A stretch of 56,712 nt of DNA from a virus. Position 1 is the stretch's first letter; the number at the start of each line of letters is the position of its first letter. The stretch covers positions 1 through 56,712 of IMG/VR virus record IMGVR_UViG_3300038701_002640, one strand, 5' to 3'. The notes beneath the pieces are model-generated. The model was given only the letters and a program-made list of their open reading frames with translations, made no database searches and was not told the DNA's origin. Shown here piece after piece: positions 1,710-56,712 of the stretch. Position numbers and translations under genes: made by a program.

Positions 1710-2057
1710 TTAATCCTCTTGTAGTCTACAACCATGATCTCTAAAAACCCTAAAAAGCGCACACAATCTACCAAGATCATTCCTATTGGTATCAGTTGCC
1801 CACTTTAGACTTTTCAGACAATCATTAAATATATCTTCGTCAACCATAATACTAATATCCTTATAATTAGATCCTACTCTTCTTAAATAAGACATTCCAC
1901 CGTCTACAGCTACAGCTCCACATTTACAATGAGACATATGATGCCTATGAGCACTATAAGGCTTATCACCGCACTGAAGACATTCGATCTGATTCGAAAG
2001 TATCTTGTACTTCCCAGACTGCTCAGACTTTTCAGACTGTATTTCTTTAGTTTTCAT
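1710..2057 (-). CDS. Hypothetical Cys/His-rich (zinc-binding-like) protein
   Basis: ORF track. The motif CLQCGD...HRHHMSHCKCG suggests a zinc-binding site. Function not recognised. Confidence 0.55.
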   Translation of the reverse strand: MKTKEIQSEKSEQSGKYKILSNQIECLQCGDKPYSAHRHHMSHCKCGAVAVDGGMSYLRRVGSNYKDISIMVDEDIFNDCLKSLKWATDTNRNDLGRLCALFRVFRDHGCRLQED

Positions 2058-2365
2058 ATCTCTTTTCCTATCCAGTTCAATGTTGATTCATATCCCTTGT
2101 AGGTCTGAGGAGGCAGAGTTCCATAGTCTACTAACTTTTCAAGGATTTGTGCCGAAATTAGCTCAACCAATACTGGATTATATGTTAATACTGCATGAGA
2201 CAATAATACTTTTTGTATGAGATCTAAGGCTACTGCTTCATGATCTACTACTGTAGACTTCCCAGACTGCTTAGACTTCTCAGACTTCTTAGACTTTTTG
2301 CCGAAGTTAACTTTCTTTACGTTACTCTCCATGAGTTTGAGTCCAGCCAGTACTTTTACCATCAA
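2054..2365 (-). CDS. Hypothetical protein with a basic KKSKKSEKSK tract
   Basis: ORF track, co-oriented and tightly packed. The start is uncertain (TTG/ATG at 2365/2362). Confidence 0.5.
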   Translation of the reverse strand: MMVKVLAGLKLMESNVKKVNFGKKSKKSEKSKQSGKSTVVDHEAVALDLIQKVLLSHAVLTYNPVLVELISAQILEKLVDYGTLPPQTYKGYESTLNWIGKEI

Positions 2366-2549
2366 GGCAACTTACAAATACATCAAACCCTTTAATAGTT
2401 TGTCTTATATCTAAGGTTACCACACCACCAAAAGGCTGACAAAACATATTGGCTTTTTCAAATGCTGTAACCTTCGTACGTTGTGGTATACTGCAACTTG
2501 TTAATGCTGTCGTTAGGATCAGTGCCGAAATTAGCTTCCAGATGTTCAT
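2322..2549 (-). CDS. Small lipoprotein
   Basis: N-terminus MNIWKLISALILTTALTSC has a signal peptide followed by lipobox L-T-S-C. Confidence 0.65.
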   Translation of the reverse strand: MNIWKLISALILTTALTSCSIPQRTKVTAFEKANMFCQPFGGVVTLDIRQTIKGFDVFVSCLDGKSTGWTQTHGE

Positions 2550-2550
2550 G

Positions 2551-2841
2551 TTAACTCTCCTCTTCAGGTTTTAGATTCTTTAAGATTTTTATTTCCTGCT
2601 CAAGCTTTTTCTTTTCTTTTTTTAATTCTGATAACTCATCTCTTGCATACTCGAGATCTCCTTGATCCCAAAGGGCTGCTTCCATTCGATTAGCTAATGT
2701 TTGAACCTCTTCAACTAGTCCCAATAGTGAACTAAAGCTTCTAGTTTCATAACAAGTTCTTATTTCTTTTAATACATCACACAAAGTACGATTTGGCACC
2801 TTTAGTCTCCTTCTACGAATGGTATAGTTTATATTCCTCAT
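2551..2841 (-). CDS. Hypothetical coiled-coil protein
   Basis: ORF track. The C-terminal half is charged and heptad-like (ELSELKKEKKKLEQEIKILK). Confidence 0.55.
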   Translation of the reverse strand: MRNINYTIRRRRLKVPNRTLCDVLKEIRTCYETRSFSSLLGLVEEVQTLANRMEAALWDQGDLEYARDELSELKKEKKKLEQEIKILKNLKPEEES

Positions 2842-3076
2842 TGAATTTTTCCAGGGGGATAGAATAATAACGTTTGTAGTTATGAACGACTACAGAGCTG
2901 TCTCTATGATTATAATACAAAACGTGTACTAAGTCTACTTTGTTTTTAGATATGTAGACTTCATTAACTCTAACCTCAATCGGCTTACTACTACTTATAT
3001 TGTTATGAATTCGTTTTAATATGAAAAAACAAACTACAGATATTAATAATATAATTAGATATTCAATATTCATCAT
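2813..3076 (-). CDS. Hypothetical membrane protein (one N-terminal TM segment)
   Basis: ORF track. Hydrophobic stretch YLIILLISVVCFFIL. Confidence 0.55.
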   Translation of the reverse strand: MMNIEYLIILLISVVCFFILKRIHNNISSSKPIEVRVNEVYISKNKVDLVHVLYYNHRDSSVVVHNYKRYYSIPLEKFNEEYKLYHS

Positions 3077-3225
3077 TCCTCCTCCATTATGACTTCATCA
3101 TATTCTAACTCTATGTCTCCATCATTAGCCCATGACAAGGTAGTTAAATTTATTCCCGAATACACATCCACTACTACTCCGTAGACTGCATAGGTTTCAT
3201 CCATATCGTAAGCATATTTAAACAT
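3073..3225 (-). CDS. Small hypothetical acidic protein (50 aa), below the ORF-track cutoff
   Basis: Manual translation: MFKYAYDMDETYAVYGVVVDVYSGINLTTLSWANDGDIELEYDEVIMEEE. Its TGA overlaps the ATG of the next gene (ATGA). The RBS is weak. Confidence 0.35.
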   Translation of the reverse strand: MFKYAYDMDETYAVYGVVVDVYSGINLTTLSWANDGDIELEYDEVIMEEE

Positions 3226-3317
3226 ATCTTACACCAATAACCCAGTTAGATCTGCCATGCAATAAAGCAATAACAGAATAAGTAATATTAGTAAATAATC
3301 TTCGTTGTCCATAAGCC

Positions 3318-3512
3318 CTACTGATCTATTTTAGATATTATAGTCTCTAGCTTTTCTTTAACTTCGTAGACTTTAACACCGTTTTTAGTTTTCTCATTTT
3401 TGCAAAACACTTTGGAGAATCCGTCAGCCTGCTCCATTTCTAATATGGTTCCAGGTCTAATAGCGTAAACTCTATTTGTAATGTTACCTGTCACTGTAAT
3501 AAAATCATTCAC
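3318..3512 (-). CDS. Hypothetical protein (GTG start)
   Basis: ORF track. GTG at 3512-3510 is preceded by AGGAG. Confidence 0.5.
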   Translation of the reverse strand: MNDFITVTGNITNRVYAIRPGTILEMEQADGFSKVFCKNEKTKNGVKVYEVKEKLETIISKIDQ

Positions 3513-3618
3513 GCTCTTCTCCTAGTTGATGTTGGTCAGACTCTAGTGCCGAAATTAGCTCCCAAACCTGATACTCATACTCTTGTAGTTCTTCACTGTA
3601 TTCATAAACCTTTGACAT
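3505..3618 (-). CDS. Small hypothetical acidic protein (37 aa), below the ORF-track cutoff
   Basis: ATG at 3618-3616 has a GGAGG RBS. Translation is MSKVYEYSEELQEYEYQVWELISALESDQHQLGEERE. It contains one copy of the dispersed GTGCCGAAATTAGCT motif. Confidence 0.4.
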   Translation of the reverse strand: MSKVYEYSEELQEYEYQVWELISALESDQHQLGEERE

Positions 3619-3637
3619 ATAACCTCCATATGTAAAG

Positions 3638-3835
3638 TTACTTCATAGCTAATAGTTTACTGATTCGCAACCATAGCTTAGGATCACTATTTTGTATTTT
3701 CTTTAAACCTTCAACATGCTTGTATCTCGTAACAACTTTTTGAAATCTTCTTCTTGCTTCATGCTCAGTAATGTAACCAGACTGAACAGCGTTAGCTAAG
3801 TTAGATGCAATATTTAAGGCAGTTTGTTTATTCAT
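3638..3835 (-). CDS. Hypothetical protein
   Basis: ORF track, co-oriented. Confidence 0.5.
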   Translation of the reverse strand: MNKQTALNIASNLANAVQSGYITEHEARRRFQKVVTRYKHVEGLKKIQNSDPKLWLRISKLLAMK

Positions 3836-3866
3836 AATGTCTCCAGTAATTATATTGTACTACAGT

Positions 3867-4070
3867 TTATTTTTTAAAACAAGACTTTTTACAATCTTTT
3901 TTCTTTTTTATTCTACAATCTGTAATGCAATCTAACCTATTGAATTCACTGTCAATCTGCTTAGATAACTTCCCAACCCCCCATGTTGTAACACTGAGGT
4001 AAGTAAAAAAACTCACCAACAGCATTGCAACTAAGGAACTTTTTAGTATTGTTCTAGTACGATTACTCAC
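3867..4070 (-). CDS. Hypothetical membrane protein with a basic Cys-rich tail
   Basis: ORF track. TM segment LVAMLLVSFFTYLSV and C-terminus CITDCRIKKKKDCKKSCFKK. Confidence 0.5.
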   Translation of the reverse strand: MSNRTRTILKSSLVAMLLVSFFTYLSVTTWGVGKLSKQIDSEFNRLDCITDCRIKKKKDCKKSCFKK

Positions 4071-4081
4071 TTCAACTCCTA

Positions 4082-4567
4082 TTATAGTTCTTTAAACTGT
4101 CTAGTAGCAACAATCTCATTTAGGTTAGCGTTATTTTGATTGGCAAACACACTAATTTTCATGATCAACTTGCCCTCAACGACTTTAATTAAAAAATCAA
4201 CTCTCTTTCGACCTGTAATGTTAGAACCATTAACGTCTTCTTCGACATCTTGTCCCGATGTAAAGTTAAGATCTCTTGTAAATCTAATCTCACCGTCGAT
4301 CACTACAAGATTAGTAGCACTGATTCTTGGAAACTGTCCAATAGTATCATTCTGAGGATTAATAGTCAGTAAGTTTTGACACTCAGATTCTAGATCTACA
4401 AGATGCTCAAACTTTTGAGTTAGTCTAATACAATTTGTATCAGATGGTCCATCTAGTAGAAAGTACCCATCGAAAACTCTAGGCTCTTCTGTTGGTGCGT
4501 AATTGTGAACTTTGTCACCACAACTAATTAAACTAACTAACATAACTAAACTAATTAACTTCTTCAT
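4082..4567 (-). CDS. Lipoprotein (161 aa)
   Basis: ATG at 4567 is preceded by AAGGAG. MKKLISLVMLVSLISCGDK has a signal peptide plus lipobox L-I-S-C. The track ORF (GTG at 4600) includes upstream repeat sequence. Confidence 0.7.
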   Translation of the reverse strand: MKKLISLVMLVSLISCGDKVHNYAPTEEPRVFDGYFLLDGPSDTNCIRLTQKFEHLVDLESECQNLLTINPQNDTIGQFPRISATNLVVIDGEIRFTRDLNFTSGQDVEEDVNGSNITGRKRVDFLIKVVEGKLIMKISVFANQNNANLNEIVATRQFKEL

Positions 4568-4580
4568 AAATTCTCCTTTA

Positions 4581-4760
4581 TTATTTATTATTAGATCCAC
4601 ATTTAGACCTAAACTTAAACCTAGACAAAGACCGAGACCAAGACCCAGACCCAGCCTGAGACCAAGATGCAGACCAAGGTACAGACCCAGATCTAGACCA
4701 ACGCCAAAACCCAGCCACAGACCCAGACCTATTAGACTTTTGTTTCTTACCTTTAATCAT
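4581..4760 (-). CDS. (X-Ser)n Trp/Arg/Gly-rich micropeptide B (59 aa)
   Basis: Manual translation: MIKGKKQKSNRSGSVAGFWRWSRSGSVPWSASWSQAGSGSWSRSLSRFKFRSKCGSNNK. Its ATG overlaps the upstream TAA (TAATG), and a TAA TAA double stop sits just before the next RBS. Paralogous to 5040..5207. Confidence 0.5.
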   Translation of the reverse strand: MIKGKKQKSNRSGSVAGFWRWSRSGSVPWSASWSQAGSGSWSRSLSRFKFRSKCGSNNK

Positions 4761-5026
4761 TACTTAAGCACCCCAAAACTTTCAATACAGTTTTTAGCAA
4801 TAAAAAATTCTTCAACACCTAGACTCTGTTCATCCTGATACTTATCAGCAGTAAAAGCTCCTGTTTGAAATACAATAGCAGGATTTTCTAAAAGAACAGA
4901 ATCTCCATTAACTCCGGTTAGTTTTCCTACATAAATGTAATTAAGACAAAAGAATGTAACCCTCTTACCCATTAAAGATTCTAATGCTGTTTCACCTGTT
5001 TCAACTACTTGTACTAACTTCTTCAT
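4760..5026 (-). CDS. Hypothetical protein (88 aa), possibly Sm/OB-like small beta-barrel
   Basis: ATG at 5026 follows AAGGAG (MKKLVQVVETGE...). The pattern GKRVTFFCLNYIYVGKLTGVNGDSVLLENPAIV loosely resembles an Sm-fold signature, which is a weak guess. The track ORF extends upstream into the repeat tract. Confidence 0.55.
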   Translation of the reverse strand: MKKLVQVVETGETALESLMGKRVTFFCLNYIYVGKLTGVNGDSVLLENPAIVFQTGAFTADKYQDEQSLGVEEFFIAKNCIESFGVLK

Positions 5027-5039
5027 AAACTCTCCTTTA

Positions 5040-5207
5040 TTATTTATTATTAGACCCAAACCCAGCCTGAGACCCAGATCCAGACCAATACCCAGACACA
5101 GATCTAGACCAAGACCCAGATCCAGACCAAGACCAAGACACAGATCTAGACCAAGACTTAGACCCAGATTTAGACCCATTAAACTTTTTTCTTTTACCTC
5201 TAATCAT
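5040..5207 (-). CDS. (X-Ser)n Trp/Arg/Gly-rich micropeptide A (55 aa)
   Basis: Manual translation: MIRGKRKKFNGSKSGSKSWSRSVSWSWSGSGSWSRSVSGYWSGSGSQAGFGSNNK. GGGAGG lies 7 nt upstream, the ATG overlaps the upstream TAA (TAATG), and a TAA TAA stop precedes the next RBS. Confidence 0.5.
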   Translation of the reverse strand: MIRGKRKKFNGSKSGSKSWSRSVSWSWSGSGSWSRSVSGYWSGSGSQAGFGSNNK

Positions 5208-5359
5208 TACTCAGCCTCCCAATTATCACAGCGAAATTTTTCAACGTTAAAATCTAAACAGTTCATAATCTTCTTAACTTTTGTAATTTGAACATTATTA
5301 CTCTTAAAGATAACCATAGTCAAAATAATCATTGCCAATAGACAGATAAAGTTTTTCAT
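5207..5359 (-). CDS. Small membrane protein (50 aa)
   Basis: Internal ATG at 5359 with an AAAGGA RBS, downstream of the SLT stop (5388). MKNFICLLAMIILTMVIFK is an N-terminal TM segment. Confidence 0.5.
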   Translation of the reverse strand: MKNFICLLAMIILTMVIFKSNNVQITKVKKIMNCLDFNVEKFRCDNWEAE

Positions 5360-5387
5360 AAAGTTTCCTTTGTTGTGTAACTTCATA

Positions 5388-5882
5388 CTACATTGCCTTT
5401 TGAACCTTGTCAAGATATTTCTTAACTTTTTTCCAATTAATACAATTTTTTCTAGTACCACAATTGTACCTTTTAATAGCTTCCTCCAAGGGATAAGTAT
5501 CATAAAACCACTTTAGTATTTTAGTCCCTTGATCAAAACTATAATCCATGTCCGTCAATAGTCTCTGCTTATCTAAATTGGATCTATCAATATGCCAACT
5601 ATTAACTTGCATGATACCATAGTCATTAGAAGACTTATTAACAGCACCCAATTTGTAAGAACTCTCAACAAAAGCAATAGCCAAAATCAACCCTAAAGGA
5701 ACTTCATGTTTATTAGAAGCTTTAACCGCAGCTCTGTGAATCCTCAATGCATAATCAGAAGACATGTTCTGCTTATTTTCCACAATCTGCAATAGATTAT
5801 GAACACCACCCAACCCAGGTTTAATATACTTGCCCCAGGCATTGCCACATAACAACATACTAATCAACAATAATGATTTCAT
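5388..5882 (-). CDS. Secreted lytic transglycosylase (SLT domain)
   Basis: Signal peptide MKSLLLISMLLCGNAWG. The catalytic E-S motif (AIAFVESSYK) and DYGIMQVN are typical of goose-type/SLT family 1 transglycosylases. Confidence 0.85.
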   Translation of the reverse strand: MKSLLLISMLLCGNAWGKYIKPGLGGVHNLLQIVENKQNMSSDYALRIHRAAVKASNKHEVPLGLILAIAFVESSYKLGAVNKSSNDYGIMQVNSWHIDRSNLDKQRLLTDMDYSFDQGTKILKWFYDTYPLEEAIKRYNCGTRKNCINWKKVKKYLDKVQKAM

Positions 5883-6133
5883 TCGTACTCCTTTAATAGT
5901 TTTAATGTTTGAGCATCCAAAATATTATCAATGCTCTGATCTTCTAAACAACCAAGTAATTTATAATCCGCCTCGGCAAGAGACTTAGTAGTAGCGTAAG
6001 TTTTATACTGAACTTCTTCTTCTACCTTATTAGTGTTCACATACAACTGAGCTTCATCAATTGAAGTAGATGTAAATAAAATCTGTCCTTCAGAGATAAC
6101 TTCAAATAGTTTTCTGTTTCTTTTTATAATCAT
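5879..6133 (-). CDS. Hypothetical protein (84 aa), first gene of the leftward arm
   Basis: ATG at 6133 is preceded by AGGAGG (rc of 6138..6143) and lies downstream of the predicted promoter. The track start at 6175 would lie upstream of the predicted TSS. Confidence 0.55.
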   Translation of the reverse strand: MIIKRNRKLFEVISEGQILFTSTSIDEAQLYVNTNKVEEEVQYKTYATTKSLAEADYKLLGCLEDQSIDNILDAQTLKLLKEYE

Positions 6134-6154
6134 AAATCCTCCTGTTAGAACTAT

Positions 6155-6183
6155 ATTGTAAACCCTACACACCACACTGTCAA
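6155..6183 (-). promoter_or_regulatory. Sigma70-like promoter for the leftward arm (TTGACA-17-TACAAT)
   Basis: rc of 6178..6183 is TTGACA, rc of 6155..6160 is TACAAT, and the spacer is exactly 17 nt. It lies in the divergent intergenic region. Confidence 0.55.
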
Positions 6184-6197
6184 GAAAAAAATTACAT

Positions 6198-6226
6198 TTG
6201 CAATTAAAATAATAATGTATTAAAAT
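6198..6226 (+). promoter_or_regulatory. Sigma70-like promoter for the rightward arm (TTGCAA-17-TAAAAT)
   Basis: 6198..6203 is TTGCAA, 6221..6226 is TAAAAT, and the spacer is 17 nt. It sits about 58 nt upstream of the ATG at 6284. Confidence 0.45.
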
Positions 6227-6283
6227 AATACTAGTACAACGGATGTTTTCTGCATCAGTTAATTCACAAACAATGAGAACACA

Positions 6284-7066
6284 ATGAGTAAGAAATTTTT
6301 CGAGGACAAAGAGTTTGTTAAACTACAATCTGAATGGTATGACAAACTCAAAGATGAAGGTTTTGAAGACATAGAGTATTTTTCAGGTAGAAGTGCTCAC
6401 AGCTTAGATACTCCATATCTTGGCACAAAGAGACAACCTACCAGCGGCTCACTAAGACGCAGATACTCTTCACAGACTTCAAACCACTACAGAATGTGTA
6501 GAAATTTTCTGCAAAATGGTCCCTTTACGCCTATTTTATGGCAGAAATATAAGAATTCCGGTACTTTACAGACTTCCCACCCTACTTTTACTTCATTTAC
6601 TAGAACATTTGACCAAACTTTCAACAGAGCTGATTTCCACCTCTTTCGTTTATACACAGAAGGCTTGCCATTCTTGGAAATGTCCGAAGAACTTCGCAGA
6701 CTTTACAGACTAAACAAGATCTCCGTAGCTAAAAAGTCTAGGCAGCCATCCAAAGACAGAGAACCTTTCTCCGTTTTCTGGGTATTTAAACGAGTAAAAG
6801 AACTTAAGATAGAAATGTACCGCTGGAACTATACAGATTCCGAAGGCTTAGGAGAGTTAGAAGACGACAGAAGCTATGAAGAACGTATGATAGACGCCAT
6901 AGACGCCAAGACTAAAGGCTCTAGATGTAAACCAAGCTGTGCCTGTATCAATGCTGAAGACTGCCCACTCTTCCGAAGCTTTTCTTGTCCCGAAGACTGG
7001 GAAGCTGGAGAGTCTGAGAAGTCTGGAACCCCCCCTCGATTTAGAAAAAGGGAGATAGCCCCATGA
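6284..7066 (+). CDS. Hypothetical protein (260 aa), possible HTH/sigma-region-4-like segment and Cys-rich C-terminus
   Basis: ORF track, first rightward gene. LFRLYTEGLPFLEMSEELRRLY weakly resembles a sigma-70 region 4/LuxR HTH. The functional guess is low confidence. Confidence 0.55.
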   Translation: MSKKFFEDKEFVKLQSEWYDKLKDEGFEDIEYFSGRSAHSLDTPYLGTKRQPTSGSLRRRYSSQTSNHYRMCRNFLQNGPFTPILWQKYKNSGTLQTSHPTFTSFTRTFDQTFNRADFHLFRLYTEGLPFLEMSEELRRLYRLNKISVAKKSRQPSKDREPFSVFWVFKRVKELKIEMYRWNYTDSEGLGELEDDRSYEERMIDAIDAKTKGSRCKPSCACINAEDCPLFRSFSCPEDWEAGESEKSGTPPRFRKREIAP

Positions 7067-7219
7067 TATATCTATATACTAATATATATATACCACACTG
7101 TGGCACACCTGTTCGTCTAAGTAAAAACCCTCGAAGGGGTCGTATTGAGAAACCGAATGATATCAACCACATGCTAACTCGGGCACCCCAGTCTAACTTT
7201 TTTTTCTCGAGCAAAAAAA

Positions 7220-7266
7220 GCTTCCCAGACTCCCAAGACTCCCAAGCCCACCCCAGTCTGGGAAGC
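7220..7266. repeat. Hairpin/inverted repeat with a 12-bp stem (GCTTCCCAGACT ... AGTCTGGGAAGC)
   Basis: 7220..7231 is the exact reverse complement of 7255..7266, with a 23-nt loop. The same 12-mer pair recurs at 7863..7913. Confidence 0.7.
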
Positions 7267-7271
7267 CCAAC

Positions 7272-7481
7272 ATGACTAACAGATCTCGTCTAATTGCAGA
7301 ACTAGAATACTTACTTGCAAACTCATGCTACCAACAAGAACAACTCGCAAACCTACAAGACAAAACTCACATATGTTCATGCCCCCTACCGGAAACTCTA
7401 AGAACTTATGAAATCGAAGAGCTTATACATAGATTAAAAACTAAAAACTCTTTAACCCTATCGGAACCTCAAAATGACTAA
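7272..7481 (+). CDS. Hypothetical protein
   Basis: ORF track. Confidence 0.5.
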   Translation: MTNRSRLIAELEYLLANSCYQQEQLANLQDKTHICSCPLPETLRTYEIEELIHRLKTKNSLTLSEPQND

Positions 7482-7510
7482 CTACAACCTAACCCTATTG
7501 GAACCTACAA

Positions 7511-7888
7511 ATGAACAATAACGATGACATACAACAATCCAAAAAGCTTTCAGACACTCAGGCTAAAAAAGAACGCACTCGCCGACGAATAATTCCAACC
7601 AAAACCCAATCCACAGAAGTTGTAGTAATCCCATCCGTGGAAACCCTACTAGATGATGCAAAAGCCATCATAGGCTCTGAGCTCGCTCAGTATCGCTCCA
7701 AAACCAAGCGCGGCGTTACCCTAGACCCTAAGGAAGCTCGCGTCGTTACAGGCTATCTAGACGCTCTCACAAGGGCTTCCAAAGAGGCTCGCGAAGCTGC
7801 ACGTAGTCATGATCTGTCCTCCTTTTCCGATGAGGAGTTAATTCAACTACTTACGTCTAAGAAGTCTGGGAAGCCCTCCGATGACTAA
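7511..7888 (+). CDS. Hypothetical basic protein
   Basis: ORF track. Basic N-terminus (KKERTRRR). Function not recognised. Confidence 0.55.
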   Translation: MNNNDDIQQSKKLSDTQAKKERTRRRIIPTKTQSTEVVVIPSVETLLDDAKAIIGSELAQYRSKTKRGVTLDPKEARVVTGYLDALTRASKEAREAARSHDLSSFSDEELIQLLTSKKSGKPSDD

Positions 7889-7913
7889 GGTGCCGCAGTT
7901 AGCTTCCCAGACT
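7863..7913. repeat. Hairpin/inverted repeat with a 12-bp stem (AGTCTGGGAAGC ... GCTTCCCAGACT)
   Basis: 7863..7874 is the exact reverse complement of 7902..7913. The 27-nt loop contains the stop codon of 7511..7888 and the GTGCCGCAGTTAGCT motif. Confidence 0.7.
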
Positions 7914-8031
7914 CCAAAAATATCCCCACCCCTCGGAGGTAAAATAGATACTAATATCGTACTATCGATAAGACCTTTTACTACAATAACAATCGCACAT
8001 TAATAGCGACAACAACACACTCGGAGCAACC

Positions 8032-8259
8032 ATGAGCAGCAAAAAACCCAAATCACTATCAGCCGTCCAACCGGACATTTCTCAGTTTCTAAATCAAAAA
8101 TATCTCGAACTCTGCCAGCAACTCGGCGACGCTCAAATCAAACTCGATCAGCTCAATGAACATGTTGCCACCATCAAACAACAAATCAAAAATCTAAACG
8201 AAGCCCACCCATTAATGTTTCAATATCAAAATATATCTGACAAGCAAAAGGATTCCTAA
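8032..8259 (+). CDS. Hypothetical coiled-coil protein
   Basis: ORF track. Confidence 0.5.
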   Translation: MSSKKPKSLSAVQPDISQFLNQKYLELCQQLGDAQIKLDQLNEHVATIKQQIKNLNEAHPLMFQYQNISDKQKDS

Positions 8260-8702
8260 TGAGCAAAACAACCCCACCCATCAGACTACGTCCAGCCGGA
8301 GAAGAAGACATCGGTTTCATATTTAACTCCTGGCTTAAATCTTTCAAGACTTCAGGTTTTGCCAGAAATATCATAAATACTATCTATTATGCAGACCAGC
8401 ATAGAATCATCGAAAACCTACTAAAAAACCAAAAAACCGTAATAGCCTGCAACAATGAAGATCCATCTCAGATTTACGGATTCATCAACGCCGGTGAAGC
8501 CGAAGGTATTTTCTGCCTAAACTACGTATATATCAAACACAGCTTTCGAGGCTTAGGAATTGCAAAAGCTCTATTAGAATCTTTTAAGTCCGACTTTAGT
8601 ACAGCCTCAGTATTTACCCACCACACCCGAATGGCTGAAAAGCTTGCAGCAAAATACAACATGGTCTACCACCCTTATTTACTATTCAACATAGAAGAAT
8701 AA
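8259..8702 (+). CDS. GNAT-family N-acetyltransferase
   Basis: IRLRPAGEEDIGFIF at the N-terminus, plus the acetyl-CoA motif A-like YVYIKHSFRGLGIAKALLE. Confidence 0.7.
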   Translation: MSKTTPPIRLRPAGEEDIGFIFNSWLKSFKTSGFARNIINTIYYADQHRIIENLLKNQKTVIACNNEDPSQIYGFINAGEAEGIFCLNYVYIKHSFRGLGIAKALLESFKSDFSTASVFTHHTRMAEKLAAKYNMVYHPYLLFNIEE

Positions 8703-8706
8703 CCCC

Positions 8707-9282
8707 ATGGCAGAAAAACCAGAAAAGACCGACATAGAAAGAGAAAATACTCGATTAGAGTACTCATTCGAAAAAGGCATAAATTTCAAAGATCGAATAA
8801 TCCAAATCACCGGGTCGATTAAAGAAAGAGAATCTTTTGACTATCTAGACGCAGCTCTATGTGAAATGGAACGAGATTCTAAAAAGACAGTAACCCTAAG
8901 AATCAATTCGCCTGGCGGCTCTGTATACGAAGCCTTAGCAATGGTGGGTCGAATTGAAAACTCCAAATGTCACGTCACCACAGAATGCTACGGTCATGCT
9001 ATGTCTGCCGCCGGGCTACTACTAGCTTCAGGATCTAAACGCCGCATGTCTTCCAGAGCATGGTTCATGCACCATGAAATATCATCAGGACTATCAGGCT
9101 CTCTAACTGAAATGCAAGAAGAGCTGGCTCAACTACAAAGAGAACAAAACGCCTGGGCTTCTGCCATGGCTGACTTCTCAGAACAATCAGAAGACTTCTG
9201 GATGAAAGCAGCTAGAAAATCCGATTTCTACCTATCAGCTGAAGAATGCCTATCTCTAGGAGTAGTCGATGAACTCTTTTAA
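8707..9282 (+). CDS. ClpP-like serine protease (peptidase S14 family)
   Basis: Motifs RINSPGGSVYEA, catalytic Ser context GHAMSAAGLLL, His context WFMHHE, and C-terminal GVVDELF match the ClpP fold pattern. Confidence 0.85.
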   Translation: MAEKPEKTDIERENTRLEYSFEKGINFKDRIIQITGSIKERESFDYLDAALCEMERDSKKTVTLRINSPGGSVYEALAMVGRIENSKCHVTTECYGHAMSAAGLLLASGSKRRMSSRAWFMHHEISSGLSGSLTEMQEELAQLQREQNAWASAMADFSEQSEDFWMKAARKSDFYLSAEECLSLGVVDELF

Positions 9283-10825: not shown

Positions 10826-13345
10826 ATGTCAGATATCAGAAAAGAAGCCATATTAGCTGAACTTAACCAACGACTAAAAGCAGCAGAAGAGGAATCTAAA
10901 AAACCTAAGTTCCAATTTGAAGATCACTGTTTCGAAAAACAATCAGAATTCTTCAGAGGACAAGGTCCAAGATTCCGAGCCGCATGTTGCTCACGTCGTG
11001 CTGGAAAATGTAGAGAAGAAAACACTCTAGTAAAAACTCCTACAGGCTCCGTAAAGATTCAAGACCTAAAACCAGGCGATGACGTATACGGCTACGACAA
11101 CGACGGTAAAGTTCGAATATGCAAAGTCACACAACTTCACGATCAAGGAATAAAAGAAGTAGTAGACCTAATATGGAACAATCAAATCATGGCTACTTCA
11201 ACATTAGACCATCGTTGGTTAGCTCACAATACCTATCAAGAAAAAAGAGAAGTAAAAAGACTAAAAGATTTCAACTCAAGAGACCGAATAGCAGAAGAAT
11301 ACGTACCCATTCCAGGCGGATCTAAAACTGTAAAAGAAGCCTACGCCCTAGGAGCCCTGCTAGGAGATGGTTGCAGTAGAGAATCAGGAATAGTAATCTC
11401 ATCAGCTACCAAATCAATAGTAGAAAAAGTAGCCGACAGTCTTCAAGCTACCTCTATAGCAAAAAGAACTGGAAACTTCTCATGGAGCATAAAGGGCTTA
11501 TCCAAATCAGACGAATCTCTCTCATTATACAATCTATGGTGTAGAGACAAATACGCTCACGAAAAAACCTTTAATCTAGAAGAAGTACGAACCTGGAACA
11601 GAGAATCTCAACTAGAATTCATAGCAGGCTTAATAGACACAGATGGCAGCGTAGCAAAAACCAAAGACGGTAGACTACACATAAGACTATCAATGCAAGC
11701 AAAAACAGTAATAGAAAACTGTCAAATGCTAATATTAGACTTATTCCAATACAAACCAATTATAAAAATAGACAATAGAGACAAATACAAAAACGGACCA
11801 GTATACGAATTAAGTATATCAAATAACAAATTCTCAAAAAGAATACTAAAAGAACTACCACTATTATCAGAACAAAAAAAGTGGAACCCTTCATACGAAC
11901 AATTAAATGAAAGAAATACAAATCCTAAATACACAGGATTCAAACTATCCGAACCAAGAAAAGCACAATGCTATGACATTACGATAAACAACGATTCTCA
12001 TTTATTCTTAGACGCCAACGGTCTCATAGGTCATAACACAGTAGGTATCGCAGCTGACGCAATAGAAACCTGCAGAAACGAACCAGGAGTAACCTGCCTA
12101 TACATTACAATTACAAAACAGGCAGCTAGAAACATAATCTGGGCAGACGTACTGCAAATCATAGAAGCTTACAACTTAGAATGTAAAATAGACAACACCC
12201 GACTAACAGTAACTTTTCCCAATAGATCTAAATTTGTAATCGAAGGCGCAAAAGACAGAACCGAGATAGAAAAATACCGTGGATGGAAACTACGTAAATG
12301 TTACATCGACGAAGCCCAATCCTTTAGATCTTACATCGAAGACCTTGTTAACGATGTTGTAACCCCGGCACTTCGTGACCTTAAAGGAGAACTATACATA
12401 ACCGGAACCCCTGGTCCTGTAAAAGCTGGATACTTCTACAAAGTTACTCACTCAGACTTCTGGCACAACGTAGGCTGGACTGCATTTGATAACCCACACA
12501 TGCACCTACCTCCTGAAAAAGACCTAAACCAAACTCTTACAGAAGAACGTACCATGAAAGGCATCGCAGAAAACGATCCTTCATACCAACGAGAAACCTA
12601 CGGTGTTTGGATAGAAGACCTAGACTCCCTAGTCTTCAAATTTAACAGAGATAAAAACAAATACACCACACTACCAATCTTCAACGAACATGGAGAAAAA
12701 TACACCTATGATTACATCTTCGGAATAGACATAGGATACAACGACTCCGATGCTATAGCAGTATTAGCATACAATTACGAAGAGAAAAAAGTATTTTTAG
12801 TAGACGAATATGTAAAAGCAAAGCAGACCATTAGCTCCCTGGTATCAGAGATCAAAAGGTTGCAAAATCACTATAACCCTGTTAAAATGGTTATGGATGC
12901 AGGAGCCCTGGGAAAAAAAATACAAGAAGAAATCCTCTCAAGACACGGCATAAACCTCATTGCCGCTGAAAAAACAAGAAAAGTAGAATTCATAGAACTC
13001 CTAAACGACGACCTCCGAACAGAAAAATTTAAAGCTTTCCAGGGCTCTGTTTTCGAAGACGACTGCATGCTAGTACAATGGGATAAAGAAAGTAAAATAA
13101 GAAATCCCGAAAGACCCAAAATTTCCGATACATATCACTCGGATATTTGCGACGCCGTTTTATACGCTTGGAGGGAATGCAGGCATTTCCTCTCAGAAGC
13201 CGTAAAGAAACCCTTCGGCAAAAACAGCAATGAATACATGGACGAGTTAGAAGCCAAAGAAGCCGAAAGAATGGAAGAAAAGAAAACCAACCCATTTTAC
13301 GACTTCTATGACGACGACGATGACGATTATTCCGATATCTTCTAA
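10826..13345 (+). CDS. terL: Terminase large subunit, interrupted by an intein (mature extein about 496 aa)
   Basis: The Walker A motif SRRAGK|T is split by the intein. Walker B is CYIDEAQS and the RNaseH-like nuclease motif is GIDIGYNDSDAIAV. The gene lies directly upstream of the portal gene. Confidence 0.9.
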   Translation: MSDIRKEAILAELNQRLKAAEEESKKPKFQFEDHCFEKQSEFFRGQGPRFRAACCSRRAGKCREENTLVKTPTGSVKIQDLKPGDDVYGYDNDGKVRICKVTQLHDQGIKEVVDLIWNNQIMATSTLDHRWLAHNTYQEKREVKRLKDFNSRDRIAEEYVPIPGGSKTVKEAYALGALLGDGCSRESGIVISSATKSIVEKVADSLQATSIAKRTGNFSWSIKGLSKSDESLSLYNLWCRDKYAHEKTFNLEEVRTWNRESQLEFIAGLIDTDGSVAKTKDGRLHIRLSMQAKTVIENCQMLILDLFQYKPIIKIDNRDKYKNGPVYELSISNNKFSKRILKELPLLSEQKKWNPSYEQLNERNTNPKYTGFKLSEPRKAQCYDITINNDSHLFLDANGLIGHNTVGIAADAIETCRNEPGVTCLYITITKQAARNIIWADVLQIIEAYNLECKIDNTRLTVTFPNRSKFVIEGAKDRTEIEKYRGWKLRKCYIDEAQSFRSYIEDLVNDVVTPALRDLKGELYITGTPGPVKAGYFYKVTHSDFWHNVGWTAFDNPHMHLPPEKDLNQTLTEERTMKGIAENDPSYQRETYGVWIEDLDSLVFKFNRDKNKYTTLPIFNEHGEKYTYDYIFGIDIGYNDSDAIAVLAYNYEEKKVFLVDEYVKAKQTISSLVSEIKRLQNHYNPVKMVMDAGALGKKIQEEILSRHGINLIAAEKTRKVEFIELLNDDLRTEKFKAFQGSVFEDDCMLVQWDKESKIRNPERPKISDTYHSDICDAVLYAWRECRHFLSEAVKKPFGKNSNEYMDELEAKEAERMEEKKTNPFYDFYDDDDDDYSDIF
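11009..12037 (+). mobile_element. Intein (343 aa) with a LAGLIDADG homing endonuclease, inserted in the TerL P-loop
   Basis: It starts at Cys62 (tgt, 11009). Block B is TLDHRW. The two LAGLIDADG motifs are LGALLGDGC and IAGLIDTDGS. It ends ...LIGHN (aac, 12035..12037), followed by +1 Thr, which restores GK-T. Confidence 0.85.
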
Positions 13346-37103: not shown

Positions 37104-37637
37104 ATGGCAGATAACGTAAAAGTCAAAATTACAGAAAAAAACGGAGTCGAATTAGACTTCACAGAAGAGTATGACCTCATTGCAGAAAATATCCCCTACG
37201 ATCCTTCAGATTCTGGACTAACTGCAACCGATGTTAAAGCTGGATTAGACGAATTATCCACTAACATTGCCACCTCCGCTTCTCCAGGATTCTCATGGGG
37301 TAGATCAGGAAATTTATCAACTAACACATGGCTTCAAAATGAAGGCGTATCCAGTAACAGAGCTGGCAGAACTGTAACATTTTCTAGTCCAGAAATAACA
37401 AGAATATTTACAGCCTCAGAAGACCTAAACACTTACACAATAACAATATATGAACATGAAGGCGATAGTATAAATTTAACAGCCTTAACAACCCTAAGTG
37501 CCACTGCTTCCAGAACAGCCGACAGTGGAACAATATCTGTCACAGTCACTCAAGGTAGACAACTTGCAATAAGAATAACATCAGGATCAGCCAAAAATCT
37601 AGTAGTAGGTATGACACTAGCAGGAGAGAATTCATAA
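37104..37637 (+). CDS. Hypothetical virion/fibre-associated protein
   Basis: ORF track. Confidence 0.5.
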
Positions 37638-38539
37638 TGAGCAAAATATTAAAAAACAATACCGCATCCATAGTAGACATAGACGACGTAGGAGTATCAG
37701 TCCCAGCATCCGGTCAAATAACAATAAACACAACAGATTTCGACGATTTTGCAGCATCAGACGATGTAGTAACCCTAGTAGGAAACGCAACTCTCACAGT
37801 AAACAATGGATCAGAAGATTTATCTATATCAGAAGGCATAAGACTATTACAAGGCGGATTCACAAATAAACTACAATTTGAAGACTCTCTAATATCTGCC
37901 AACGGACTAAGACTAGATATAGATGACGCTTTAACAGGTCCACAAGGTCCACAAGGCATCCAAGGAGATACAGGTCCACAAGGTCCACAAGGTATCCAAG
38001 GTGAACAAGGCATCCAAGGAGATACAGGTCCACAAGGCATCCAAGGAGATACAGGTCCACAAGGCATCCAAGGAGATACAGGTCCACAAGGCATCCAAGG
38101 TGAGCAAGGTATCCAAGGTGAACAAGGCATCCAAGGAGATACAGGTCCACAAGGTCCAGTAGCCACATTTGGATCAGAATTTCAACAAGCAGAATCTTTA
38201 ACAGAGTCGTCTACAGGAAGTACTACATTTCAACAAAAACTAACATACACCACTACAAGTCTTCCATCTGGAACATACTACATAGCATTAAGATATAGAT
38301 GGAGAAAGTCATCAGCATCTAATGATTTTAGCGCCAGACTACAACTCAATAATTCGACTACTTTAATGGAACACCAGCAGGAAGCTAAAGACGGAGGAGC
38401 CGACCAAAGACATTTTTTAACATGGTTTGGAACAGAAACTTTAAGTGGAGTAAACCAGTTAGATGTAGACTTTAGAGAACAATCAGGAGGAACCTCCTTC
38501 ATCGCAGAAGTAAAACTGATACTATGGAGGATTAGCTAA
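37637..38539 (+). CDS. Collagen-like repeat fibre protein
   Basis: 25 uninterrupted G-X-Y triplets ([15 protein letters not shown]...GPV), flanked by non-collagen N- and C-terminal domains. Confidence 0.75.
37937..38161 (+). repeat. Collagen G-X-Y coding repeat (25 triplets of 9-nt-periodic DNA)
   Basis: ggtccacaaggcatccaaggagatacaggt units. All antisense ORFs here are repeat artefacts. Confidence 0.9.
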
Positions 38540-54754: not shown

Positions 54755-55360
54755 TTATACTATCTCGTACTGGGAGAAAGTTTTTATCATTGTTAGGTAA
54801 AGCTCCATTTCATCCTCATTAAAACCATTAGTCTCGCCTATATACTGATAATTATCTAACCAGTGCTGAATAGAATGATCTATACAACCTATCTTAACCC
54901 TATATTGGTCCTCATATCTATAATAGACTAAGGTATATTTTTCACCAGTAAAACTAAGTATGCCTTTTGTATGCTGCGTGTTCGATACAGACAAATTAGC
55001 TCTATACAAATTAGCTTTATACAGATTAGCGAAGGACAAATTAGCTTTATACAAATCAGCATTAGACAAGTCAGCTCTAAACAAATTAGCATTAGGCAAA
55101 CTAGATTCAGACAAATTAGCTTTATACAAATTAGCTTTATACAAATTAGCAAAAGGCAAATTAGCTTTATGCAAATTAACTTTATACAAATTAGCTTCAG
55201 ACAAATTAACTCCAGACAAATTAGCGTAAGACAAATTAGCTCTAAACAAATCAGCTCTAAACAAATCAGCTCTAGACAAATCAGCTCTATTACCTTTACT
55301 ATTATCCTCTAACCATAACTGATGCTGCTCTAATATTTCATTTAATTCATTCTGGTTCAT
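54755..55360 (-). CDS. Pentapeptide-repeat protein PRP-A (201 aa)
   Basis: ATG at 55360 (MNQNELNEILEQHQLWLEDNSKGNRADLS...). About 20 A(D/N)LxX units are followed by a C-terminal domain [39 protein letters not shown]... that is shared with PRP-B. Confidence 0.85.
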   Translation of the reverse strand: MNQNELNEILEQHQLWLEDNSKGNRADLSRADLFRADLFRANLSYANLSGVNLSEANLYKVNLHKANLPFANLYKANLYKANLSESSLPNANLFRADLSNADLYKANLSFANLYKANLYRANLSVSNTQHTKGILSFTGEKYTLVYYRYEDQYRVKIGCIDHSIQHWLDNYQYIGETNGFNEDEMELYLTMIKTFSQYEIV

Positions 55361-55383
55361 ACCTACTCCCTTACCTATTTCTA

Positions 55384-56349
55384 TTAAAGCACAAAATCCT
55401 TTCCACAGCAAGGACACGTCACAGCCCTAGCTTCCTTTAACTTCTTCCTCTTACCTGCCTTAGTGACCTTATTCTTGTCTGCTTCCTTAGCCTGTTCTTG
55501 GCTAATTGCCGAAGCCGTTACGGGAACTTCCATTTCCTCATTCTTCCTGTAGTGTCGTACGTTTACCGTACAAAGATGATTACTATAAAAATTTAGGGCA
55601 TTAGTAAAAGCATCCGGCTGCCTCATCTCAGACAAATCAGTAAACAAAGGTTCTTTATGCTGCTCCTTATCGAACTCAACCAGTCTCTTAAGAGCTAGAT
55701 CAACTGGTACTTTGTCAGCAATCAGCTCACCACATAAAGAGCTAAGGGCATGGTTCCTTCCCGAAGTCATAGAGCCTTTACCATCACTTTCCAAATCGCC
55801 AAATTTCGCCTTTAGCTTCGACTCTAGATTAGACACTAGAAAAGGTGGTAAAAGTGGTAAACTACCTAGATCTACATCTAATAGGGTTTTATCCGTGGTC
55901 CAGACATAAGAACAACCATTAGGATGTTTACTTGGGGGTAAGGTTGTCTTCTTATTAGAAGATAAAACCTCTAGAACAACTGAACCATTGAGCTTAACTA
56001 TCTGGGTATGTTCACCTTTGTAGCGAAAAAATCGCGTAAAACCCGTACTACCTCGCTTCTCTACTGGGCTCTCGGGCAGTATGCCTTTTATTATTTCTAG
56101 GATTTGTGGGTCGTCTGTATCAACATCTAGGGCTATGATTCCAGACTGCTCGCCTAAACATAGAGCTATGTTATTTTCTGGGTAAGCTTCAGACCAGAGA
56201 GCCACCTCGTGCCCTTTAGGTAGTTTGTAGCAATAATCAGCATAACCTTTTATCATAGCCTTTTTGCTGGCGTATCTGTCAGGTATTAAGCTCAATCCCC
56301 TGTCTATATACTGTTTACCTAATTGACTGTATATGTTTTTAGTTTGCAT
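55384..56349 (-). CDS. Prim-Pol-type (bifunctional primase/polymerase N-terminal domain) AEP protein
   Basis: GLSLIP..., NIALCLGEQSGIIALDVDTDD (DxD) and TLPPSKHPNGCSYVW, the characteristic Prim-Pol motifs. Basic C-terminus with CPCCG. Confidence 0.7.
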   Translation of the reverse strand: MQTKNIYSQLGKQYIDRGLSLIPDRYASKKAMIKGYADYCYKLPKGHEVALWSEAYPENNIALCLGEQSGIIALDVDTDDPQILEIIKGILPESPVEKRGSTGFTRFFRYKGEHTQIVKLNGSVVLEVLSSNKKTTLPPSKHPNGCSYVWTTDKTLLDVDLGSLPLLPPFLVSNLESKLKAKFGDLESDGKGSMTSGRNHALSSLCGELIADKVPVDLALKRLVEFDKEQHKEPLFTDLSEMRQPDAFTNALNFYSNHLCTVNVRHYRKNEEMEVPVTASAISQEQAKEADKNKVTKAGKRKKLKEARAVTCPCCGKDFVL

Positions 56350-56361
56350 ATCTATTCCTTT

Positions 56362-56712
56362 CTACGTTATCTCATATTTAGACATAAACTTTATTTGAGA
56401 TATATATAATTCTATTCCATCCTCATTAAAACCATTCTCCTGACCTATCTTACGATAATTATCTAACCAATATTGAATTGGATGATCCATACAACCTATT
56501 TTAACCCTATACTGGTCTTCATATCTATAATAGATTAGAGTATAGTTTTCACCAGTAAAACTAAGTATGCCTTTTGTATGTCCTAGGGCAGCTTTATACA
56601 AATTAGCTCCAGCCAAATCAGATCCAGACAAGTCAGCTTCAGACAAATCAGCTCCAGACAAATTAGCTTCAGACAAATTAGCTTCAGACAAATTAGCTTC
56701 AGACAAATTAGC
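56362..56712 (-). CDS. Pentapeptide-repeat protein PRP-B, C-terminal part (same gene as 1..772; 56586..56712 duplicates 1..127)
   Basis: ORF track 56362..56706. It reads ...[75 protein letters not shown]... and has no genuine start inside the window end. Confidence 0.85.
56586..56712. repeat. Terminal overlap, copy 2 (identical to 1..127)
   Basis: 127/127 identity with 1..127. Confidence 0.9.

Follow-up and report, generated by a model that had tools for sequence, protein, structure and literature searches.

Between positions 4,581 and 5,207 of the viral record IMGVR_UViG_3300038701_002640, which was analysed over its whole length of 56,712 nucleotides (referred to here as the window), the minus strand carries two micropeptide genes, A and B, that are built from a hexanucleotide repeat and encode peptides in which nearly every second residue is serine (X-Ser). 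The two genes lie on either side of a gene for an acidic protein of 88 residues, in the order SLT transglycosylase, 47-residue membrane protein, peptide A, 88-residue protein, peptide B and lipoprotein (Table 1). The evidence presented below argues, at a probability of about 0.9, that the tracts are genes of a widespread phage micropeptide family; that each contains a hypermutable in-frame hexanucleotide microsatellite, whose length changes in both directions through slippage while selection on the peptide preserves the open frame and the (W/R/G)-Ser pattern; and that the family is translationally coupled to an acidic partner of ~88 residues with a predicted Sm/LSm-like fold.

An initial annotation of the window had proposed two paralogous X-Ser micropeptides on the minus strand, and the list of open reading frames contains exactly the two sequences it quoted. 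In both genes the start codon overlaps a stop codon as TAATG, the product ends in GSNNK followed by TAA TAA, and five tryptophans are present, as had been described. The ~40-nucleotide block reported to follow each gene, tctaataataaataataaaggaga[g/a]tttatgaagaagtta, is indeed duplicated with a single base difference, and both copies provide the following gene with a ribosome-binding site and its MKKL start. The 6-nucleotide periodicity had been called strict for both tracts. This holds for tract A, in which Tandem Repeats Finder detected a period-6 array of 19.5 copies (5052–5168) and a 42-nucleotide higher-order repeat at 91% match, but it is overstated for tract B, where the array (4619–4729, 18.5 copies) reaches a match of only 61%. 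A six-unit AGANNN pattern with at most one mismatch has 20 matches in the window, all of them inside the two tracts, and none in 100 dinucleotide-preserving shuffles. What the initial annotation overlooked is the 88-residue gene between the peptides, which is the conserved Sm-like partner.

Selection acts on the X-Ser reading frame

The NGGTCT hexamer is open in four frames. Its only freely variable base is the wobble position of the +1 frame (Gly-Leu) and of the reverse frame (Arg-Pro), so that the peptide reading is not given beforehand. Avoidance of stop codons was assessed in 236 unique tracts comprising 4,136 units, collected from viral contigs regardless of frame. Tracts found by pattern were taken from the listed matches, at least 120 for TCT units and at least 120 for TCA/TCC/TCG units, with six perfect units required. 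TAG is absent from the 4,136 units where ~91 occurrences were expected (P = 7e-42), and TGA occurs once against ~25 expected (P = 4e-10). The G at position 2 is replaced by A in 200 instances, all of which read GAG, AAG or CAG and none TAG. Stops are not avoided in the reverse Arg-Pro frame.

The boundaries of the genes point to the same frame. A start codon for the X-Ser frame is present in 180 of 193 tracts (ATG in 164), mostly 8–11 codons ahead of the repeat, and a stop follows 1–5 codons past it; just 20 of 191 tracts offer an ATG in the +1 frame. Three loci (L130, L131 and L132) encode a partner 80% identical to that of the window and have the same peptide-gene-peptide layout, and their tracts are (DGGTCA)n. 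TGA recurs all along the reverse frame of these TCA orthologues, and their +1 frame reads Gly-His/Gln; X-Ser alone survives. The +1 and reverse readings, in which the variable base falls on the wobble position and which are appealing for that reason, are thus ruled out by the start and stop architecture, the stops of the reverse frame and the TCA orthologues.

Codon usage was also counted in an unbiased set of loci, which were identified by way of the neighbouring protein, independently of the repeat. All six serine codons occur there (TCT 608, TCG 545, TCA 178, AGC 114, AGT 68 and TCC 45), whole tracts are built on AGC or AGT, and one GenBank relative mixes TCG, TCT and TCA within a single tract. 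In six pairs of contigs whose partner genes are 100% identical, tract lengths differ by 24, 48, 84, 90 or 132 nucleotides, and in the complete pairs every difference is a multiple of 6 that keeps the frame. Stop avoidance, the use of six serine codons, starts and stops in one frame only and in-frame length changes together indicate that the tracts are peptide genes rather than a DNA or RNA word. The frame-specific constraint among relatives that the initial annotation had suggested looking for therefore has a clear outcome for the peptide frame, as judged by stops, starts, serine codons and lengths.

These data also bear on a signal residing purely in the DNA, which the initial annotation had left as an alternative. 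An array of protein-binding or restriction words, or a plain recombinogenic microsatellite, would account for the near invariance of five of the six positions within TCT tracts and for their unstable length, and the plus-strand word AGACC is the site of the type III enzyme EcoP1I. Orthologous tracts, however, use GGTCA, GGTCG, GGTCC, GGAGC or GGAGT in place of GGTCT, and an open reading frame architecture with stop avoidance in one frame only is not what such an array calls for. An EcoP1I-site array is ruled out since AGACC is not kept across the serine-codon classes, and the codon-class data leave the DNA-level explanation as a whole refuted for practical purposes.

An acidic partner with a predicted Sm-like fold

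Among the upstream neighbours of pattern-found peptides, 70 of 113 fall into one family, the homologues of the 88-residue gene of the window; with a hidden Markov model the count is 83 of 121. Seen from the other side, a profile search for the partner gave 74 unique loci, 69 of which have a peptide gene directly downstream. The remaining five comprise three loci cut by contig ends, one with the peptide upstream and one with a short remnant. From the side of the partner the pairing is essentially obligatory. The commonest junction between partner and peptide is an ATGA overlap. Two loci (L256 and L257) share the synteny of the window with both peptide copies, one (L258) has the peptide upstream of the partner, and one (L260) contains a TCC-type tract.

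The partner family comprises 488 clusters at 50% identity, and its members are nearly always stand-alone proteins of ~88 residues. They have no Pfam match at E values up to 0.1 and no PHROG match, a profile search of the PDB gave no significant match, and the Sm1/Sm2 or Hfq sequence motifs, as represented by the Pfam LSM and Hfq models, are absent. The AlphaFold2 model of the partner is of high confidence (mean predicted local distance difference test score, pLDDT, 93.3; predicted template-modelling score 0.82) and contains a helix at residues 14–17 followed by six strands. In a Foldseek search all of the top 50 PDB matches were Sm, LSm or SmAP proteins, with a probability of 1.00 and target-normalised TM-scores up to about 0.8. 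In its predicted structure the partner is thus an Sm-fold protein, with a short N-terminal helix and a bent antiparallel β-barrel. The family is acidic, with a median isoelectric point (pI) of 5.0 and 91% of members below pI 6. Three members (P0129, P0130 and P0177) have two domains in tandem; this suggests that the predicted domains may assemble into an oligomeric ring.

A fusion of partner and peptide by −1 frameshifting at A-AAA-TGA was considered and rejected: the junction in the window, CTT AAG TAA TG, does not form a slippery sequence, and the gene ahead of peptide A is a different one.

Composition and distribution of the peptide family

Most of the listed pattern matches in the viral collection are open reading frames of 27–110 residues in which a short basic head precedes (X-Ser)n. 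Typical heads are MIRGKKQKWS, MVTKRTKYRS and MKRSLKQKWS, and the N-terminal consensus is M-[IR]-R-[GS]-K-[KQ]-[QK]-K-[WY]; a second type of head reads MNxAxLRxGYDxS. In the unbiased set the peptides are 27–94 residues long (median 61), and X is Gly (606), Trp (504) or Arg (453), with Lys at 27 and all other residues rare. The median net charge is +10 and the pI 12. Trp makes up 12.5% and Arg 13.6% of residues, and Ser and Gly together account for half of the total. Neither a signal peptide nor a hydrophobic segment was found in the peptides, and the longest hydrophobic run is at most three residues in 65 of 69.

Most loci contain one peptide gene, and some contain tandem arrays of up to 6–7 copies. 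Arrays of up to seven copies are formed by a subfamily with the head MIKKSIYKRNIWS, for example in L069 (about 1900–6200) and L113 (about 5000–8800), and also in L033, L048 and L075. The DNA pattern further catches two kinds of unrelated sequence: a protein in which a (Trp-Ser)n N-terminus is joined to a transmembrane segment rich in Leu and Ala (L012, near 4660; L047; L080), and Arg-Ser runs inside larger giant-virus proteins (L020, L068, L081 and L082).

As the initial annotation had noted, no named family matches the peptides. Where they have been called as genes they are annotated only as 'hypothetical protein'. A search with the partner protein in annotated phages gave a single uncultured record; the partner is left without annotation there, and one copy of the peptide is labelled 'hypothetical protein'. 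Peptide A has no match in a database of 5.8 billion proteins, a route limited by the low complexity of the sequence and by uncalled micro-genes; the family profile has 21 unnamed matches in the same database. Matches in bacterial genomes are confined to metagenome bins, which span many phyla.

Evolution of the repeat and predicted RNA structure

Within tracts, heterozygosity is 0.71 at the first base of the X codon, a non-synonymous site that is saturated, versus 0.05 and 0.02 at the synonymous third bases, which are nearly frozen. Gly is encoded by GGG in 85% of cases in the peptides and in 15% in the partner gene, Arg by AGG or CGG in 80% versus 33%, and each peptide uses essentially one serine codon (median 97%). 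Trp, Arg and Gly are the residues that lie one step apart through NGG. We infer that slippage and expansion homogenise the units, and that selection keeps or quickly restores the Trp/Arg/Gly mix.

In genomes with two copies, the peptide genes resemble each other in head, tail and 3′ block more closely than they resemble their orthologues, indicating concerted evolution. The Sm-like gene is consequently flanked by direct repeats (window 5015–5211 and 4556–4764; L130 848–1078 and 1366–1530; L256, on either side of 3001–3273), which could provide a route to its loss or duplication.

The RNA of TCT tracts (window 5052–5177, minus strand; L001 1110–1229) is predicted to form a long imperfect hairpin with z about −8, since GGUCU is self-complementary when G-U wobbles are allowed. 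The median z is +3.7 for TCA, +2.0 for TCG and −0.2 for AGC tracts, and AGT tracts likewise have no predicted structure. RNA structure does not appear to be a conserved feature, the prediction being confined to TCT tracts; the hairpin could have a local effect on expression.

This leaves the possibility that the (NGGNNN)n mRNA itself is the functional element, a platform around which the Sm-like ring is arranged by TRAP-like wrapping for autoregulation or coupling, the peptide being incidental. X codons are nearly always NGG, which places GG every six nucleotides for any serine codon; the predicted fold of the partner is that of RNA-binding rings, and the strong predicted structure of TCT tracts would add to the appeal. 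That structure is not retained in the TCA, TCG, AGC and AGT classes, however, where only the GG of NGG recurs, and tract lengths of 27–94 codons imply no fixed stoichiometry, which argues against a platform. Stop avoidance and the maintenance of serine through six codons, including AGY, denote selection on the translated product, and we regard an RNA-level function as improbable.

Genomic context and a possible role in lysis

The surroundings of the module were surveyed in 148 flanking genes from the loci by one batch scan. They encode mostly SSB, Erf/RecT, RusA, helicases, nucleases, ParB-like proteins, methyltransferases, dCMP deaminase and DUF932 proteins; the only lysis enzyme among them is one amidase. 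In five loci (L002 and L005–L008) the module is flanked by Erf-like and SSB-like genes. Beyond the pair itself no gene recurs constantly, and the module is accordingly defined as the Sm-like gene with its peptide or peptides, inserted at varying sites in early or DNA-metabolism regions.

A role as an outer-membrane disruptor or another lysis function had been suggested in the initial annotation, and a Trp/Arg-rich membrane-active helper of lysis, or a substitute for a spanin, is in keeping with some of these data. The peptides are cationic and rich in Trp and Arg, and in the window and in L256/L257 the module is placed between the SLT transglycosylase with the 47-residue membrane protein on one side and the lipoprotein on the other. 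Across the family, however, neither a lysis cassette nor a hydrophobic or amphipathic face was found. With 1 of 148 neighbours lytic and DNA-metabolism genes predominating, the window, whose module adjoins the SLT gene, is an exception, and the loci with the module between Erf-like and SSB-like genes speak against lysis. The constant partner is a Sm-like protein of cytoplasmic type, and peptides lacking a signal peptide or hydrophobic run, with half of their residues Ser or Gly, are poor candidates for membrane disruption. The proposed lysis role is not borne out, and we consider it unlikely.

The same survey bears on two further possibilities, a precursor of a ribosomally synthesised and post-translationally modified peptide (RiPP), with a leader and a repetitive core modified on Ser or Trp, and the variable region of a diversity-generating retroelement (DGR). 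A conserved leader ahead of a variable core, the tandem arrays of 2–7 copies at some loci and the concentration of variation at one base of NGG would suit either. Modification of serine, which the initial annotation had suggested, is putative, and no modifying enzyme is consistently linked; radical SAM proteins account for 2 of 148 neighbours, and the only constant neighbour, the Sm-like protein, is unlike a leader-recognition domain. Mutagenesis by a DGR is adenine-specific, yet within tracts the A bases of TCA, AGC and AGT units do not vary, and no reverse transcriptase was found among the subset of window open reading frames scanned. Both possibilities appear very improbable.

A candidate mechanism

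Returning to the X-Ser peptides and their Sm-like partner as a coding pair, we tentatively propose that a disordered, polycationic and aromatic peptide works with a Sm-like ring on nucleic acid, a proposal to which we give somewhat less than even odds. The peptide would be an intrinsically disordered, multivalent 'tail supplied in trans' that combines positive charge with aromatic residues. Its conserved basic head, or its overall charge, would bind the acidic ring, and the pair would bind nucleic acid, most likely RNA, or chaperone or condense it while infection is in its early, DNA-metabolism phase, a function analogous to that of the RG/RS-rich tails found in eukaryotic Sm, LSm and SR proteins. 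The number of repeats would set the valency, and slippage would tune it rapidly. The acidic partner (median pI 5.0) and the peptide at +10 are complementary in charge, and the X positions contain far more Arg (453) than Lys (27). The DNA-metabolism neighbours of the family, and the place of the module in the polymerase-bearing arm of the window, also speak for this mechanism. A Trp-rich composition with Arg over Lys is typical of low-complexity sequences that bind nucleic acid or form condensates.

Several observations weigh against this account or against parts of the broader interpretation. Translation of the peptides, their binding to the partner, the ring and its binding of nucleic acid are all putative, and the partner, being acidic and matching no Sm or Hfq sequence model, may not bind RNA at all. 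When peptide A was joined to the partner in an AlphaFold2 fusion (run as a monomer, with no alignment for the peptide), the leader was left undocked with pLDDT below 50 at residues 1–16; the Sm domain stayed confident, and the repeat was drawn as a low-confidence β-hairpin with pLDDT about 65. No natural fusion of partner and peptide, which would amount to an Sm protein with its tail, was found among the family members. Arrays of the MIKKSIYKRNIWS subfamily mostly lack a detectable partner, with a Sm-like gene within 1.5 kb upstream in only 3 of 16, and this subfamily may act by itself or through a different partner. In the window, as in L256/L257, an SLT enzyme, a lipoprotein and a small membrane protein are encoded next to the module. 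Finally, the extreme use of NGG and of a single serine codon is only partly explained.

The main competing explanation retains the pair but gives it a different task. Here the peptide would be a host-directed effector, for instance an inhibitor of translation, of the nucleoid or of a defence system, or else a decoy, and the Sm-like protein would neutralise, store or deliver it as a chaperone or antidote that has no RNA role of its own, much as nucleoplasmin does with protamines, or as with an antitoxin gene that precedes its toxin. The pairing of an acidic partner with a peptide at +10 is as expected for such a system, as is an acidic gene placed first and a basic gene second with a 4-nucleotide ATGA overlap; this acidic-then-basic, overlapping order resembles the organisation of type II toxin-antitoxin loci. 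Rapid change in peptide length is compatible with an arms race, the module occupies variable positions among accessory early genes (ParB-like, methyltransferases, DUF932), and some peptides have no partner nearby. On the other hand, toxicity and a host target are putative, the best fold matches are RNA-binding Sm rings, and the obligatory pairing seen from the partner side fits a joint machine equally well. An effector with its antidote is a possible but rather unlikely explanation.

Extended to its full scope, the nucleic-acid mechanism would amount to a two-component system in hundreds of phages, in which an acidic Sm-like ring is fitted with one to several polycationic (Trp/Arg/Gly-Ser)n micropeptides, produced from a self-renewing hexanucleotide microsatellite, as detachable low-complexity tails for multivalent binding of RNA or single-stranded DNA or for the formation of condensates. 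This would be a split viral counterpart of Sm- and SR-type proteins whose valency and composition are retuned by slippage within a few generations; in this complete form the idea is doubtful.

Comparison with known systems

The eukaryotic and archaeal Sm and LSm proteins with Arg/Gly-rich tails (SmB, SmD1, SmD3 and LSm4) and bacterial Hfq with its disordered C-terminal region combine, like the phage module, an Sm barrel (predicted in the case of the phages) with low-complexity, Arg/Gly-rich disordered sequence. The phage partner differs in having an acidic barrel devoid of the Sm1, Sm2 or Hfq signature. The phage 'tail' has a gene of its own in the −1 frame, never fused, and it is Ser-alternating, Trp-rich and produced from a hypermutable hexanucleotide repeat; RNA binding by the module is putative.

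The RS domains of SR proteins and RGG/RG motifs share with the peptides Arg-Ser or Gly-Ser dipeptides, disorder, multivalency and a preference for Arg over Lys. RS domains are long Arg-Ser runs attached to RRM-containing proteins, whereas the phage peptide stands alone at 27–94 residues with no other domain; Arg makes up only ~29% of its X residues, Trp and Gly being equally common, and it is found in bacterial viruses with no linked kinase. Disruptin is a phage-encoded cationic lysis peptide of phage phiKT. Disruptin and the Trp/Arg-rich antimicrobial peptides are small, cationic and rich in Trp/Arg, as are the phage peptides, and the window genes lie near a transglycosylase; the X-Ser peptides are set apart by serine at every second residue, the lack of a hydrophobic face, the Sm-like partner and the DNA-metabolism context.

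Phase-variable contingency loci likewise depend on slippage-prone simple-sequence repeats within bacterial and phage genes that give frequent heritable variation, and length change at high frequency is found here too. Contingency loci switch ON and OFF by frameshifts, whereas the 6-nucleotide unit yields graded variation in length. Nucleoplasmin with protamines or histones resembles the module in pairing a small acidic β-protein with an Arg/Ser/Gly-rich polycation, but fold and organisms are unrelated and the likeness is an analogy only.

GoF, MotB.1 as well as Frd.2 of T4 are early proteins of Tevenvirinae with an LSm-like fold that was recognised by structure prediction only, and an effect on RNA is suspected for them (PMC12152347). 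They resemble the partner as phage LSm-like proteins visible through structure prediction; they differ in belonging to another sequence family and in having extra C-terminal domains, and no repeat peptide is mentioned in that report (PMC12152347). A study of Borg extrachromosomal elements describes coding tandem repeats that are near-perfect, lie inside open reading frames, have units divisible by three, evolve fast and yield disordered, low-complexity products (PMC9879509). The phage tracts are likewise in-frame tandem repeats of a mobile element that give rise to a disordered peptide. The Borg repeats have diverse units and occur in many unrelated proteins of the archaeal elements (PMC9879509), whereas in hundreds of phages one dipeptide pattern makes up a whole micro-gene with a fixed partner.

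The module thus lacks at least one defining feature of each of the closest known systems, and no description of the peptides or of the module was found in the literature searched (open-access papers and bioRxiv), which together suggest a new kind of phage gene module. The saturated non-synonymous site beside nearly frozen synonymous sites is an unusual evolutionary signature. If the interpretation is correct, a function of bacterial viruses would be borne by a pure low-complexity dipeptide-repeat peptide that is genetically split from its folded partner, and a coding microsatellite would vary the valency of a protein while selection holds the frame and the residue pattern. A large Sm-like family recognisable by structure only would be added to phage biology, and the module would flag real genes that are systematically missed by gene callers, low-complexity filters and domain databases. 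Whatever its mechanism, the pair is small, easily synthesised and directly testable.

The module and other features of the window

At ~56.7 kb the window looks like a complete phage genome and is podovirus-like. Among its proteins are matches to a portal of the SU10 type, to a terminase that has a LAGLIDADG insert, and to a family A DNA polymerase, ribonucleotide reductase and Prim-Pol. The module is situated within the minus-strand arm that bears the polymerase (PolA), the reductase and Prim-Pol. A DNA search with the region found no close relative among annotated phages, and a search for loci by the SLT gene and an exact search with a 24-nucleotide block gave no matches. There are no tRNA genes in the window and no Rfam family at gathering thresholds.

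Table 1. Positions of the module and its neighbouring genes in the window.
Feature	Position	Strand	Remarks
SLT-domain transglycosylase, secreted	5388..5882	−	Pfam SLT, E 5.5e-17; upstream of the module; same synteny in L256 and L257
Predicted membrane protein, 47 residues	5207..5350	−	Stop overlaps the start of peptide A; same gene called in L256 and L257
Peptide A gene, 55 residues, MIRGKRKKFNGS(X-S)n...GSNNK	5040..5207	−	From the list of open reading frames; net charge +10, pI 12
Tract A, (NNN-TCT)n hexanucleotide repeat	5052..5177	−	Tandem Repeats Finder, and pattern against shuffles; 42-nucleotide higher-order repeat
Shared 3′ block after peptide A	5015..5054	−	Last Ser codon, NNK, TAATAA, ribosome-binding site AAGGAGA, MKKL codons of the partner gene
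Partner gene, 88 residues, acidic (pI 4.8), predicted Sm/LSm-like fold	4760..5026	−	Peptide genes on both sides
Peptide B gene, 59 residues, MIKGKKQKSNRS(X-S)n...GSNNK	4581..4760	−	Net charge +13; TAATG overlaps the partner stop; position and overlap typical of the family
Tract B, more degenerate hexanucleotide repeat	4619..4729	−	Tandem Repeats Finder, period 6 at 61% match; period-12 and period-24 sub-arrays
Shared 3′ block after peptide B	4556..4595	−	Ribosome-binding site and MKKL start of the downstream lipoprotein gene
Predicted lipoprotein, 161 residues, MKKLISLVMLVSLISC...	4082..4567	−	Downstream of peptide B; lipobox read from the sequence; no Pfam or PHROG match

Further features lie outside the module. 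An open reading frame of 260 residues (6284–7066, plus strand), which has no Pfam match, lies in a stretch of locally raised GC content where the gene arms change from the minus to the plus strand. The large terminase (10826–13345, plus strand) has a LAGLIDADG homing-endonuclease-like insert and probably contains an intein. A collagen triple-helix repeat protein is encoded at 37637–38539 on the plus strand, with a 27-nucleotide tandem repeat at 37945–38154. Long arrays of a 15-nucleotide tandem repeat, AGCTTCAGACAAATT, occupy positions 5–698, 54989–55286 and 56590–56712, and the open reading frame at 54755–55417 on the minus strand encodes a pentapeptide-repeat protein (Pfam PF00805, E 1e-32). 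Since AGCTTCAGACAAATT lies at both ends of the window, circular permutation or terminal redundancy of the contig is probable, and a second pentapeptide-repeat gene would run across the ends.

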